A DNA stretch of 36,147 nucleotides from a virus (lineage: Duplodnaviria > Caudoviricetes). Below the pieces are notes generated by a model. That model did no database searches. It worked only from the letters and a program-made list of their open reading frames with translations, and had not been told where the DNA came from. Below, in pieces: positions 1,689 to 28,036 of the stretch. The number at the start of each line of letters is the position of its first letter. Within the stretch, counting starts at the first letter, position 1. Made by a program: the position numbers and the translations under genes. The stretch spans positions 1-36,147 of the IMG/VR virus record IMGVR_UViG_3300044858_003222. One strand, written 5' to 3'.

Positions 1689-2306
1689 TTATTTAGCGTT
1701 TAAGGTTTTAAGTTTTTGGTCGTAATGTTCTTTTAGCGATTTGGGAATCACAAATTGGTATGTTCTTAACTCATCTACACTGTTGCAGTCATCTATTAGT
1801 AGCTTATATCTTTGTTCTGCACGGTCAGGAGCTTCTTTTTCTATTACAATTGTAGGCAAATCGGCTTCTTCTGTTCCTCTGTTTAATCCTCCACCAAATA
1901 GCTTACCAATTTTCCTGCAAGCATTTTTAAATGCCATTGTAGAACACTTTGGTGTAGCTAATGATAAAAGTTTCATTGAGTTTACATACTCAGTTGCTGT
2001 CCCTGTTTGCGTGTATTGTTTGTTACCGCTACTATAAAAAAGCTTTACAGTTTGTGTTACTGATACTCCGTTTTTATCTTGACAAATAACTGGAGAAAAA
2101 ATTATTTCATAGTGCCAGTCGTCAAACACTTTGCTACAAAGGTTTTCAAGCAACTCTACTTCATTAAATTCATACTCAGTTTCGTTTGAAATAGATTTTT
2201 TTGTTTTAATCCATTCCTTTGGTTGTTCTATGTTGCACAGTTCTCTAAATGTGGATGCGTTTGCAATGGAAGGTTCTACCAATTGCAGTAGTTCTTTGGT
2301 TGTCAT
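1689..2306 (-). CDS. Rad52/Sak-like single-strand annealing protein
   Basis: VFDDWHYEI, TMAFKNACRKIGKLFGGGLNR pattern; directly upstream of the exonuclease, as in phage two-gene recombination modules. Confidence 0.6.
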   Translation of the reverse strand: MTTKELLQLVEPSIANASTFRELCNIEQPKEWIKTKKSISNETEYEFNEVELLENLCSKVFDDWHYEIIFSPVICQDKNGVSVTQTVKLFYSSGNKQYTQTGTATEYVNSMKLLSLATPKCSTMAFKNACRKIGKLFGGGLNRGTEEADLPTIVIEKEAPDRAEQRYKLLIDDCNSVDELRTYQFVIPKSLKEHYDQKLKTLNAK

Positions 2307-2323
2307 TAGTTAAGGCCTTTTAG

Positions 2324-2521
2324 TTATTTTACTCTTGATACGTGGGTCGTTGCATCAACAGACTTAATTTTAAAAATCTTGTCTTTGTGTTCTTCTTTTC
2401 TTTTAAGATTAGACACCATAACCATTACAGATGTGTATGGGTTTTCTAATAGTAAACTTTCTCCTACTTGCAGTTCTGATACCTTGCTTGATACCGAATC
2501 TGGACTAATGTTTCTTGCCAT
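2324..2521 (-). CDS. Hypothetical protein, possibly DNA-binding
   Basis: 65-aa ORF with an A-rich leader and a TACCTTTG promoter box upstream. Confidence 0.65.
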   Translation of the reverse strand: MARNISPDSVSSKVSELQVGESLLLENPYTSVMVMVSNLKRKEEHKDKIFKIKSVDATTHVSRVK

Positions 2522-2585: not shown

Positions 2586-2649
2586 AAAAAGCCCCCATAT
2601 AAAATATATACAGGGGCATAATGACCATAACTAAACCTTATTGCTAAGG
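2586..2649 (-). ncRNA. Candidate small RNA cassette 1
   Basis: TATATTTG box at 2650..2657 (minus), then hairpin CCTTA-GCAA-TAAGG, then TTTAGTTATGGTCATTAT, then terminator GCCCC...GGGGCTTTTT; no plausible ORF. Confidence 0.55.
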
Positions 2650-2697
2650 CAAATATAATGAAAATACCTTTTAACTTTTGATTAACAAACGAGATAT

Positions 2698-4400: not shown

Positions 4401-4478
4401 CGTAACATTTTTTTGTTTTTATCGTAACAAATCGTAACTTAGCGTAACAAAACGTAACAAATCGTAACAAATCGTAAC
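4401..4478 (+). repeat. CGTAAC repeat array with exact 10-bp phasing
   Basis: CGTAAC starts at 4401, 4423, 4433, 4443, 4453, 4463 and 4473. Confidence 0.95.
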
Positions 4479-4480
4479 AC

Positions 4481-4750
4481 ATGATAAAGAAGAAAGAAAA
4501 CTGCAAATATTGCGGTGAAAAAATGGAAAGCAGAACTGCTAAAAAAAGTTTTTGTTCTGAAAAATGTAGAGTGTATTTTAACAGGGAGTCTAAGTGCTCA
4601 AAAACCCTACTTGAAATTATAGATACCACTGGAGAACCTAATATCTTAGCTAATTTACCCATCAAAGAAGTGGGTAATAAAAAACAAATGCCTAAAGGAC
4701 TCAGTATTCAAGAACGTATAGAATGGTTAGAAGAAAATGAGAAACTATAA
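4481..4750 (+). CDS. Zinc-finger protein (CxxC...FCSxxC)
   Basis: CKYCGE...KKSFCSEKCR; ATG lies 2 nt after the repeat array. Confidence 0.7.
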   Translation: MIKKKENCKYCGEKMESRTAKKSFCSEKCRVYFNRESKCSKTLLEIIDTTGEPNILANLPIKEVGNKKQMPKGLSIQERIEWLEENEKL

Positions 4751-4925
4751 TTTAAGATGCAATTACGAACAATTAGTGGTTAAGCTATCGCTAATTGCAA
4801 ACGAAAAGGTCAAAAACCTAAAATACTTATCAGACTACCAGCTTCTTTGCAGGCTTAATGAGCTTTTGGTAGGTTTAAATCTAATACCGTTTACGGAAGA
4901 AGAATTAGAAATGGACCTTGTATAA
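4737..4925 (+). CDS. Hypothetical protein
   Basis: Overlaps the previous gene and ends at a bidirectional-looking hairpin. Confidence 0.55.
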   Translation: MRNYNLRCNYEQLVVKLSLIANEKVKNLKYLSDYQLLCRLNELLVGLNLIPFTEEELEMDLV

Positions 4926-4993
4926 AAAAGCCCCCATTAAGAATAATAGGGGCCCTAACTAAATCAAACCAAAAAACACACATGAGAACTGTG
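4924..4993 (-). ncRNA. Candidate small RNA cassette 2, antisense to the start region of gene 10412..10693
   Basis: Promoter-like TAATTTTA at 4994..5001 (minus); terminator GCCCCTATTA-TTCT-TAATGGGGGC-TTTTTT at 4924..4953; 4956..4973 is identical to 10389..10406 and 4978..4985 to 10408..10415. Confidence 0.6.
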
Positions 4994-5029
4994 TAAAATT
5001 ATATTATTTTTTTGGTTTTTGATATATTT

Positions 5030-5560
5030 TTAGTTTAATACTAAATCTTTTCTGGTAAAATTTTCTTTTAATTTAATTACTAAGTCTAAATATATATCCC
5101 TAAACTGTTCGTTTGTATTAATTAAATCGTCAAATGACTTACATCCATACATCACAGTAGTGTGGTCGTACTTCCTTGTTTTACTTGTGGCTATTGTTTG
5201 ACCTATGGCTGCAAACCCATTACCCATTATTCTAGCTAACTTAAAGTATATAAATCTATAATTAACAATTTCACGATTACGGCTCCCATTTGCAAGTCTA
5301 GCAATATCATTACCAAATTTTTCATTACCAAATTTTTCTTTCATTACACTATCTATAAACTCTCTTAACATTAAAATTGGAATCTTTGGTATATCAGAAC
5401 TCTCATCTATCATTGTTAATACCTGTGGCTCATAACCAATCTTTTCCTTAAATTCTTTTTTAAACTTCTCAATAATCTTTGCCTCCAATCTTCTTTTGTA
5501 AAGCAATGTTTCTGTTTCAACTTCTGGTCTTTCTAAATACTCGTTTAACTCTAAGCTCAT
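5030..5560 (-). CDS. Protein with a DnaA C-terminal (domain IV)-like HTH
   Basis: RNREIVNYRFIYFKLAR...IGQTI...DHTTVMYGCK resembles DnaA R.R.I...R.IAMYL.R...IG..F..RDHTTV.HA; no AAA+ domain. Confidence 0.7.
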   Translation of the reverse strand: MSLELNEYLERPEVETETLLYKRRLEAKIIEKFKKEFKEKIGYEPQVLTMIDESSDIPKIPILMLREFIDSVMKEKFGNEKFGNDIARLANGSRNREIVNYRFIYFKLARIMGNGFAAIGQTIATSKTRKYDHTTVMYGCKSFDDLINTNEQFRDIYLDLVIKLKENFTRKDLVLN

Positions 5561-10197: not shown

Positions 10198-10268
10198 ATT
10201 AAATATTAATTAAATTAAAATTTTTAGTAGTTTTGTAAAAATGATTAATTTTATTAAAAATTAATTTT

Positions 10269-10391
10269 ATGGCAAAAGCTACAGGAAATTCAACAAAACT
10301 AAGCTTCGGGAAAAGAAAGGGCGGAAAAGCACAAAAAACACGAGGACCAAAACAAAAAGCCGTTTCTCAGTACCGAGGTCAAGGAAAATAA
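10269..10391 (+). CDS. Small basic protein, 40 aa, ending YRGQGK
   Basis: Own translation MAKATGNSTKLSFGKRKGGKAQKTRGPKQKAVSQYRGQGK; TAGTTTTG box at 10228..10235 upstream. Confidence 0.75.
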   Translation: MAKATGNSTKLSFGKRKGGKAQKTRGPKQKAVSQYRGQGK

Positions 10392-10411
10392 CTAAATCAA
10401 ACCAAATACAC

Positions 10412-10693
10412 ATGAACAAAAAATGCGCTTTAATTAAATCGTTATTGAAGGGTGACATCATCAACGTAAGTAATTCTATTAAACTTACCGGATATAGTAA
10501 TCCTGCTAGGGAAATACCAAGAGAAGTTGAAAAACCATTTGGTTGCGTTATTAGTAGGGTTAAGATGGAGGGTAGGGACCAATTTGGTAATTACGTTATG
10601 TGGTACGACTATCGTTTTAATCCTAGGATAGACGTTAATATAGCTGCAACTAAGAAAATGAAAGAATATTTAGAAAAAGAAACAGGTAGATAA
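10412..10693 (+). CDS. Hypothetical protein, possible winged-helix DNA-binding protein
   Basis: LLKGDIINVSNSIKLTGYSNPAREI...beta hairpin...DYRF. Confidence 0.6.
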   Translation: MNKKCALIKSLLKGDIINVSNSIKLTGYSNPAREIPREVEKPFGCVISRVKMEGRDQFGNYVMWYDYRFNPRIDVNIAATKKMKEYLEKETGR

Positions 10694-11364: not shown

Positions 11365-11631
11365 ATGAAACAAAAATTCACACCATTGGGTAAAAGAGTT
11401 CTGGTTAAGCTAGATGCTCCTAAAGACAGAACGGACAGCGGTTTGTATTTACCCGAAACAGCTCAAAAAGACTTTATTACAGGAGTTGTAGAAATGGCCG
11501 GTAAAGAGGCTGAAAATGTATCAAAAGGAGATAAAATCATGTTTGCCAGCAGTGTGGGGGTTGACATTGAAGTCAATGGGCAGCAGTTTAGACTTATTCC
11601 TGATGAGCTTTATATTGACGCAATAATTTAA
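11365..11631 (+). CDS. groES: Co-chaperonin GroES
   Basis: PLGKRVLVK, TDSGLYLP, VSKGDKIMF, IDAII. Confidence 0.9.
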   Translation: MKQKFTPLGKRVLVKLDAPKDRTDSGLYLPETAQKDFITGVVEMAGKEAENVSKGDKIMFASSVGVDIEVNGQQFRLIPDELYIDAII

Positions 11632-11649
11632 TGATTTAACCCATTATTC

Positions 11650-11695
11650 AAAATGCCTTCAAAATTTTGGGGGCATTTTATTTTTATATCCTATA
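11650..11695 (+). terminator. Intrinsic terminator after groES
   Basis: AAAATGCCTTCAA...TTGGGGGCATTTT followed by a T-rich tail. Confidence 0.7.
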
Positions 11696-11718
11696 AAAAA
11701 CTTAATTTTATACCATCT

Positions 11719-12570
11719 ATGAGCGCACAACCGATAAACCATATTTTTCTTAATTTAGACAAGCCTATTCAAGATACAATCAAAATAGGTGATTTAGAGT
11801 TATACCTAGACGGTTCGTTTCGTCCTGAATGGAACGCAACAGTTGTTGGTGAAATAGCTGCATTGCCAGAAAACCCTAAAGGTGAATATGCTGAAACTGT
11901 TTCTAAATTAAAAGTTGGAGATAAAGTTTTATTTGATTATTCAGTAGTTGCTGAAAGAAAATTTGAATCAGATGGAGCTTATTTTACTGAGGTTACAAAA
12001 GATAGTCCTTATTATCAAAAATTTATTAATGGTAAGGGTGAGAAAATATTTATTGTAGCAATGCCGGGTAAAATTACTCATACTTGGTCTGGAACTTTTA
12101 GTGATAATCGTGGAAATTTTGTTCATGGATGCCAAGGTTCTGAAAGCGAATTAAGCAGGTGGAAATCTCAATTTAGTTTTGGAGAAACACAGCAGTTCTT
12201 TTTTACAAATCTTTTAGACACAGGAAATGGAGATGTATGGAAAGCTTCGTATAGAGATATTTATGCAAAGTTTGAAGGAGATGAATTAAAAACAGTTGGC
12301 GATAGAATTATTCTTGAACCAATAGATTTAGATATTCCAAAAGAAGTATTGACCCAAATGGGAATAGAGCTACCGCAAAGTACATTTAAAGCAAGACTTG
12401 GCGATAGAGCAAAAGTTATTTCAGCTCCAGAAGGTTCTGATTTAAAAGTAGGTGATGTTGTTGGATTTGAGGAGAAGTATTTGGAGAAGTACGAATACAA
12501 CGGTAAAAATTATTATTTAATAAAATCCCGGAGAGCTCTGGGAGTTTGGGAGGAAGAAAATGGCCTATAA
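11719..12570 (+). CDS. Protein with two GroES-like domains (start moved to ATG 11719)
   Basis: GEIAALP...LKVGDKVLFDY and DRIILEPI...GIELP...LKVGDVVGF...NGKNYYLIK; the upstream ATG at 11653 lies inside a terminator. Confidence 0.65.
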   Translation: MSAQPINHIFLNLDKPIQDTIKIGDLELYLDGSFRPEWNATVVGEIAALPENPKGEYAETVSKLKVGDKVLFDYSVVAERKFESDGAYFTEVTKDSPYYQKFINGKGEKIFIVAMPGKITHTWSGTFSDNRGNFVHGCQGSESELSRWKSQFSFGETQQFFFTNLLDTGNGDVWKASYRDIYAKFEGDELKTVGDRIILEPIDLDIPKEVLTQMGIELPQSTFKARLGDRAKVISAPEGSDLKVGDVVGFEEKYLEKYEYNGKNYYLIKSRRALGVWEEENGL

Positions 12571-18751: not shown

Positions 18752-18774
18752 AAACTAAATCAAAAGGATAAATC

Positions 18775-27685: not shown

Positions 27686-28036
27686 ATGGAAACAATTGAA
27701 GAACTAAAAAACACAATTAAAGATTTAGAAAAGAAATTACAGTATTCTGAATCTCAGAAAAATGTTTATGAGAATGGTGATGCCAAGCTATATTACGCTT
27801 TACAGCGAAAGATGAGCGAAATGGCTAACACGTTAAATAAACAAAACTTAGAGAATATTGACATTGATAGCAAGGATAGTAAGTCTTTTGATAGAATTAT
27901 TACTATACTTCAGAAGTGTGAAACAATATCATCTTCAGCTTCTGCGTTAGGTGCAATAGCCGGTGTTACAGGTGATGAGCAAAAAGACATTGCTAAGAAA
28001 CCATTTGTAGAAACCATTGCTGAAAGCAGAAAATAA
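27686..28036 (+). CDS. Helical protein, terminase small subunit candidate
   Basis: Position directly upstream of TerL is the only evidence for function. Confidence 0.4.
   Translation: METIEELKNTIKDLEKKLQYSESQKNVYENGDAKLYYALQRKMSEMANTLNKQNLENIDIDSKDSKSFDRIITILQKCETISSSASALGAIAGVTGDEQKDIAKKPFVETIAESRK

Follow-up and report, generated by a model that had tools for sequence, protein, structure and literature searches.

The C4 antisense RNA of phages P1 and P7 is a processed, structured RNA. It is phage encoded and controls a phage gene from a separate position, its target being the antirepressor of temperate phages (PMC8201110). Other short phage RNAs that run from a promoter to a terminator, namely, sar of P22 and OOP and aQ of lambda, also repress phage genes by pairing, with sar blocking translation initiation, but these overlap their targets in cis and are fully complementary to them (as described in PMC12197685, which includes a table of 38 uncharacterized phage sRNAs). 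SviR, from a Vibrio PLE satellite, is a trans-acting RNA of a mobile element with several targets, including that element's own transcripts, and is described in the context of satellite-versus-phage conflict in Proteobacteria (10.1101/2022.04.08.487710). PeSLs of T4-like phages are compact terminator/promoter units located in a variable phage region with duplicated intergenic sequence, and they are described as recombination points (PMC4122927). Finally, in Bacteroidota, where Shine-Dalgarno sequences are not used (PMC6847099) and which lack obvious Hfq and ProQ (PMC7366714), the chromosomal RNA GibS of Bacteroides thetaiotaomicron (~145 nt, with a 3'-end terminator) places a long single-stranded 5' part over the start codon region of mRNAs encoded elsewhere; its repression of host metabolic genes has been tested (PMC7366714), and mRNAs of this phylum are repressed when the RNA pairs over the start codon, although their translation makes no use of Shine-Dalgarno sequences (PMC7366714; PMC6847099).

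The window, by which we mean the whole stretch of DNA analyzed here, is a linear virus record of 36 kb that is 53% complete, has a GC content of 33%, and carries phage replication, recombination, and virion genes. It derives from an uncultured freshwater phage, probably of Bacteroidota, a host assignment based on its primase/helicase, which matches those of Flavobacterium, Cellulophaga, and Maribacter phages, all at <60% identity. At 11365 to 12570, two neighboring GroES-like genes (88 and 305 aa) lie ahead of the virion genes. Tandem 10-nt repeats (CGTAAC core; 4421 to 4482) immediately precede a zinc-finger-like gene at 4481; they are a possible operator or origin array, and similar repeats are found in relatives L017, L031, and L010.

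Between two convergent operons, the plus-strand one ending at 4925 and the minus-strand one at 5030, the window holds an element (Table 1) that we regard, with reasonable though far from complete confidence, as encoding a trans-acting antisense RNA with an ancestral target in the recombination operon and a stronger, lineage-specific target in a winged-helix gene. Judged from sequence comparisons, it is a real and conserved feature that probably represents a new trans-antisense RNA family of phages, with one target that is old and one that was gained later. The setting and the build resemble those of GibS, but where GibS is a long chromosomal RNA acting on host genes, the RNAs predicted here form a phage family of 52 to 70 nt that would act on phage genes and has no Rfam match. 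Within the window, there were no Rfam hits at gathering score, and the best subthreshold match of the element was Spot 42 (24 bits versus a cutoff of 80; E = 0.11). This lack of an Rfam match also separates the element from C4, as do its predicted targets (recombination operon and winged-helix gene) and the absence of a tyrosine integrase from all five near-complete relatives, the latter suggesting a lytic lifestyle as far as a search confined to tyrosine integrases can tell. Unlike sar, OOP, and aQ, the window element is not cis encoded: its predicted targets lie 2.6 and 5.4 kb away, on either strand, and the pairing is imperfect. SviR is comparable in acting in trans on several targets, transcripts of its own element among them. 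In contrast to what is described for PeSLs, the promoter-like box here faces the terminator and the spacer tracks the target sequence; when we looked for multiple full copies flanking variable gene cassettes, the element turned up once in full and once in part in this 53% complete record, and duplicated leaders are known from relatives. A literature search confined largely to open-access papers found no report of such RNAs in Bacteroidota phages.

Table 1. Coordinates (window numbering) of the predicted RNA gene, its candidate targets, and associated features
Feature	Position	Strand	Basis
Predicted 66-nt small RNA	4924..4989	-	Start inferred at 4989; fold and conservation
Intrinsic-terminator-like hairpin (4930-4953) with U6 tail (4924-4929)	4924..4953	-	Fold, invariance
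Single-stranded U/G-rich antisense stretch including anti-AUG, 35 nt	4955..4989	-	Folding, target scans
Bacteroidota -7-like promoter box TAATTTTA, followed by CA	4994..5001	-	Consensus TAnnTTTG
Arm predicted to fold back on antisense stretch in read-through from gene 5030-5560	5007..5023	-	Fold of 5030-4924
Further element built in this way: terminator (2591-2617) preceded by a short free stretch and, at 2650-2657, the TATATTTG box	2586..2657	-	
Target 1, lineage specific (predicted): Lys-rich stop codon, 20-nt leader, and winged-helix-like ATG	10389..10415	+	Match, energy
93-aa winged-helix-like protein (putative), accessory in phage group	10412..10693	+	Structure model, neighbors
Lys-rich ORF of 40 aa, ending with the stop codon at the head of the leader match	10269..10391	+	Gene calls
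Target 2, family-level position (predicted): leader and first codons of gene 1689-2306	2291..2317	-	Dimer folding
Rad52/Sak-like single-strand annealing protein (putative), upstream of exonuclease (935-1687)	1689..2306	-	Foldseek, Pfam
Conserved 65-aa gene ("MAR" gene), operon marker	2324..2521	-	Conservation

In the predicted RNA, the 5' 33 nt are unpaired and the 3' stem has a folding energy of -18.5 kcal/mol (z = -3.4 versus shuffles). Its U tract lies on the minus strand, exactly as the first-pass annotation had read the terminator, and the plus-strand ATG at 4982 indeed opens only a very short frame (ATG AGA ACT GTG TAA, i.e., MRTV-stop). A simple terminator scan of the window did not list this hairpin, and other lineages carry differing hairpin sequences at the same place. 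An RNAalifold consensus structure contained 0 pairs, because the alignment misregisters the stems, which were then folded singly. As for the start of the RNA, the primary promoter box of Flavobacterium is TAnnTTTG at -12 to -5 (PMC9723704), and applying this spacing to the TAATTTTA box, which deviates from the consensus at its last base (A rather than G), would make G4989 the first base. The sequence has no evident -33 TTTG; TAnTTTTACA is kept in all 13 aligned orthologous elements. A sigma-70 promoter scan, which is ill suited to this host group, remained at shuffle level. A plus-strand start-stop arrangement (NTG-TAA) spanning the promoter was dropped as an explanation, since L470 has CTG and the box accounts for the letters. 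A hydrophobic frame of 30 codons (4891 to 4983, minus strand), beginning with an AUG at base 7 of the predicted RNA, continues across the terminator. All 12 of 12 clade loci preserve the length of this frame, but its residues beyond the terminator vary freely, and its AUG is absent from distant groups A to C (see below); it is probably a shadow.

Transcription from this internal box is what we infer, and the same terminator also ends the NinG-DnaA-like operon (5030-5560 plus upstream), so that the antisense stretch might alternatively be the 3' untranslated end of that operon's mRNA, acting as the intact transcript, as a processed 3' fragment, or by read-through fold-back, with no separate small RNA. 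The noncanonical box fits such an arrangement, as does the group C element, which precedes the 65-aa gene by ~85 nt and shares its strand. However, when 5030-4924 is folded as a whole (-32.1 kcal/mol), positions 5007 to 5023 pair with the antisense stretch, and with this arm included in the longer transcript, predicted binding to the 10412 leader falls from -33.7 to -19.2 kcal/mol, a loss of ~14 kcal/mol. Since the long form would thus sequester the antisense part, since the box is conserved across lineages, and since in many family members the RNA and its target operon are on opposite strands, we hold an origin purely as a 3' untranslated region to be quite improbable; for 10412 in particular, fold-back is impossible because that target is on the other strand. 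On the reading with a separate small RNA, read-through transcripts would fold the antisense part away, and output would therefore depend on the internal promoter.

What had originally drawn attention to the element was a two-part match to the leader and start codon at 10412, and this match was borne out: 4956 to 4973 equals 10389 to 10406 (18 nt), and 4978 to 4985 equals 10408 to 10415 (8 nt). The 18-mer alone is weak evidence, close to chance level, since Markov simulations modeled on the window yielded an exact nontandem direct repeat of at least 18 nt in 14 of 150 and 17 of 150 runs. The composite 18-plus-8-nt match, in contrast, is above chance: when the 35-nt free part was shuffled 600 times with its dinucleotides preserved, the local alignment score never attained the observed 40 (maximum, 36). 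A further 12-nt match, reported upstream of 18775, is located where it was said to be (18753 to 18764), but it is at chance level: 209 of 600 shuffles had a 12-nt match somewhere in the window, and predicted binding reached only -14.4 kcal/mol, so 18775 was rejected as a target. Two sites had been absent from the first-pass annotation, namely, the complementary minus-strand site at 2291 to 2317 and the self-sequestering arm at 5007 to 5023.

Among 69 candidate starts of the window, 10412 ranked first in full dimer folding (-34.1 kcal/mol; z = -4.5; next best, -20.6 kcal/mol), and by a simpler duplex measure, it scored -34.6 kcal/mol, with none of the 690 starts from 10 other records doing better than -27.1; the leader itself is predicted to be unstructured. 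The model of the encoded 93-aa protein (pLDDT 93) shows three helices and a beta-hairpin. Its best matches were of TFIIE/MarR type in Foldseek (E = 0.013), the ArsR-type AntR in VIA-align (Z = 6.1; root mean square deviation, 3.5; 76 aligned residues), and HTH_39 clusters in Atlas (0.92). The structural neighbors are mostly winged-helix regulators and the topology fits, but the scores are modest, and we therefore speak of a winged-helix-like fold with a putative DNA-binding role. Homologues of the Lys-rich 40-aa ORF occur in other phages ahead of unrelated leaders and genes.

Conservation was assessed in 16 clade loci, with duplicate contigs (L003, L021, and refetches) dropped from site counts. 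Third codon positions of ten genes of the region differ from those of the window at 0.16 to 0.31 per site. The element (4924 to 5001), on the other hand, varies at 2 of 78 sites among 11 close loci (0.005 differences per site), with none of the 31 sites of 4924 to 4954 variable, and the adjoining 5002 to 5029 is less conserved (4 of 28 sites). Contigs of four further runs had no substitution in 4922 to 5005, whereas their flanks differ. The target 1 leader, 10389 to 10415, varies at 2 of 27 sites (0.017 per site; 13 loci), a conservation that is not unique to it, because the Lys-rich gene and its upstream spacer (10198 to 10391) are themselves low in diversity (0.027 to 0.036, about one-tenth of the neighbors' third positions); one other intergenic region is also low, at 0.016. 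The only variable antisense site, 4965, is the partner of 10398. Among the 10 records covering both positions, 9 are C/C, one (L004) is T/T, and none is mixed; a mixed pair of L004 RNA and window leader would lose a predicted ~6 kcal/mol. A joint change such as the first-pass annotation had looked to exists, but as one event, expected in about 1 of 10 cases by chance. Gene conversion could be an alternative source of it; the second leader change of L004 likewise shifts the leader toward the element sequence. L004 takes different sides in the trees of the two flanking genes, so that the element and leader loci recombine.

These data bear directly on whether the winged-helix match has any regulatory meaning. 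The RNA might be real and act on the recombination operon, with the match to 10412 being the by-product of a copied leader and with each copy kept for its own reason, i.e., RNA function on one side and an efficient A-rich leader on the other. Leader copying is a real process in this phage group, given that 15 of 694 real leaders from 11 of its records match another leader of the same record equally well. Identical or near-identical leaders are indeed found between unrelated genes of these phages, and the restriction of the match to one clade, the uniformly low diversity of the Lys-rich module, and the single joint change all fit a by-product. Nevertheless, if both RNAs coexist, a 26-bp duplex (-34 kcal/mol) over an unstructured leader is hard to avoid; moreover, the ATG insertion of the element, absent from groups A to C, is aligned with the target AUG, and the match persists through 16 to 31% synonymous divergence and through recombination between the two loci. 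We consequently judge a mere by-product unlikely. As a separate observation, differing accessory genes with identical or near-identical 35-nt leaders occur in L254 (G003), at L010:3326-3866, and in G010 and G011; from their sequences, this points to leader-mediated cassette exchange.

Elements with the box and hairpin kept, but with no ATG, were found at the same junction in distant groups A to D. Those of groups A to C have a GUUCU-like 5' end and lack the 3- to 5-nt insertion that supplies the anti-AUG in the window's clade. The winged-helix gene had no hit in groups B and C or in four further records that keep the element, and in other groups carrying that gene, its start ranked 30 of 45, 15 of 49, and 5 of 55, with an unrelated leader. 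As far as this distribution goes, the element is older than the winged-helix match. The trans-antisense control of 10412 proposed in the first-pass annotation is hence retained in part: the top-ranked pairing, the conservation of both partners, the one joint change, and the winged-helix-like fold agree with it, but the target is lineage specific, and the conserved target of the family is instead the gene following the 65-aa gene.

As a general motif, ACACATGAGAACTG was rejected, since among 96 distinct contexts, the element occurred in the window's clade only. Searches with terminator plus ACACATGA in other phages yielded several short-ORF elements with no clear cognate-target signal, several top scores being the element's own ORF, and were not used. 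A similar unit consisting of a reverse terminator, an AGGAG-type site, an ATG, a very short ORF, and a reverse -10-like box was seen in higher-GC phages (L161:717-762, L195:10001-10048, and L149:272-317); those of L161 and L195 look like the beginning of a gene of ~296 aa that the other strand encodes. A genome-collection scan gave 3 matches, none with the element.

Passes with a short target window (-35 to +15) left 7 of 8 elements and 12 of 14 loci without a clear cognate target, and the family target came to notice when orthologous starts were then listed. G001, G002, and G010 lack the 65-aa-gene region, and the pairing lies partly in codons 4 to 7. In the window, the gene following the 65-aa gene starts at 2306, and this start ranks 2 of 69 for the window RNA; the free part alone reaches -20.6 kcal/mol at the target site, leaving the terminator closed. 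The product of this gene matches human RAD52 in Foldseek (E = 1.3e-7), and of 12 homologues, 9 match Pfam Rad52_Rad22 with E values no higher than 0.1 (2.6e-4 at best), though the window protein itself does not; the adjacent exonuclease belongs to PHROG 5715. On these structural and profile matches, we take 1689 to 2306 to encode a Rad52-like annealing protein, with the exonuclease gene as its neighbor. Beyond the window's clade, the gene at this position encodes a ~120-aa protein that has only a C-terminal stretch in common with the annealing protein; neither this protein nor the element had a cultured relative in 50,697 phage records.

Across 16 element-record pairs, the start following the 65-aa gene ranks first in 7 and among the top 6 in 12 (full dimer folding). 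In group A, a 16-nt exact match runs into its ATG. Matches extend into the coding sequence and track a Val/Ile change, the free stretch of type 2 units (see below) being AAACCGTTAAC opposite a Val codon and AACCATTAAC opposite an Ile codon. The window and group A RNAs each prefer their own sites (-20.6 and -19.1 kcal/mol, versus -14.3 and -9.9 when exchanged). The position fails in L028/L010 (33 of 55) and ranks 13 to 25 in group B, where a 15-nt match is located just past the 65-aa stop codon, at least 70 nt from a start codon. When cognate pairs were compared with swapped pairs in 12 lineages (one locus per lineage), the double-centered advantage was -4.3 kcal/mol (permutation P = 5e-5, which overstates certainty because the target was picked after inspection and the lineages share ancestry). 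Six control genes, which share those same related lineages (6 to 12 per gene), gave P values of 0.17 to 0.99 in this test. The complementarity is thus lineage matched, and since it holds with the RNA on the same strand as the operon or on the opposite one, fold-back within one transcript cannot account for it. The exonuclease start was tried as a second family target and rejected (P = 0.17). For the window RNA, rank 3 of 69 goes to the start at 27686, which belongs to a 116-aa ORF immediately preceding the gene for the terminase large subunit, and an ORF starting similarly ranks first in three group B records; orthologues of the 27686 ORF gave a P value of 0.19 in the cognate test (7 lineages, none from group B).

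This pattern also has to be weighed against an element that is a mere terminator plus leader-like cassette, the matches being scars of cassette shuffling (compare the PeSLs of T4) that involve no RNA pairing. Duplicated leaders do exist in the phage group, the group B match lies away from a start codon, and A/C-rich leaders pair generically with U/G-rich tracts. Scars, however, would hardly be expected to leave cognate-specific complementarity at one gene position only and extending into the coding sequence, the free stretch is near invariant though a terminator needs none, and the promoter-like box points into the terminator. Overall, an element without RNA pairing strikes us as decidedly improbable, and we return to the trans-acting RNA.

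Additionally, the window contains a second element of the same build (Table 1), which has a perfect TATATTTG box and immediately precedes the 65-aa gene. Variation in the free stretch of this element is higher, at 15 of 75 sites in 2 loci. Among its predicted targets, the exonuclease start comes first and the 2306 start fourth of 69, and in G004, the 2306 orthologue ranks 1 of 92 for an element of this second type. Of 96 distinct hits to the TATATTTG-box pattern, 17 have a hairpin and tail; the scan put the number of stored stretches with the pattern at an estimated ~820. Most TATATTTG-type units with enough flanking sequence adjoin the same operon as the 65-aa gene.

In the mechanism that we propose, a promoter of its own would drive transcription of the 66-base RNA (minus strand, 4989 to 4924), and the unpaired U/G-rich half of this RNA would pair in trans with the start of the Rad52-like annealing mRNA (2306), the conserved target of the family. 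In the window's lineage, a further duplex of 26 bases would cover the whole leader of the winged-helix gene at 10412 together with its AUG, a second match probably gained by copying of a leader-like segment together with the ATG-bearing insertion in the element. Such pairing may occlude ribosome loading, as GibS does in Bacteroides, or may guide duplex cleavage, an alternative that would fit group B too. The likely role would be to damp early recombination and regulator proteins during lytic infection. More tentatively, with the odds in our view somewhat against it, we speculate that these RNAs constitute a widespread family in lytic Bacteroidota phages, acting as programmable translation switches that run from promoter to terminator and coevolve with the start of the recombination operon, and that leader copying wires in new genes, the window representing a capture of the winged-helix gene by a near-perfect 26-bp duplex.

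The gain of new targets by an sRNA is rarely caught in the act, and here, one phage family presents ancestral and derived targets, along with pairings short enough to test and alleles that are naturally compensatory. Phages known to control genes of their own by trans-antisense pairing are so far mainly temperate ones of enterobacteria; if the reading given here is true, such control would extend to apparently lytic phages of Bacteroidota.
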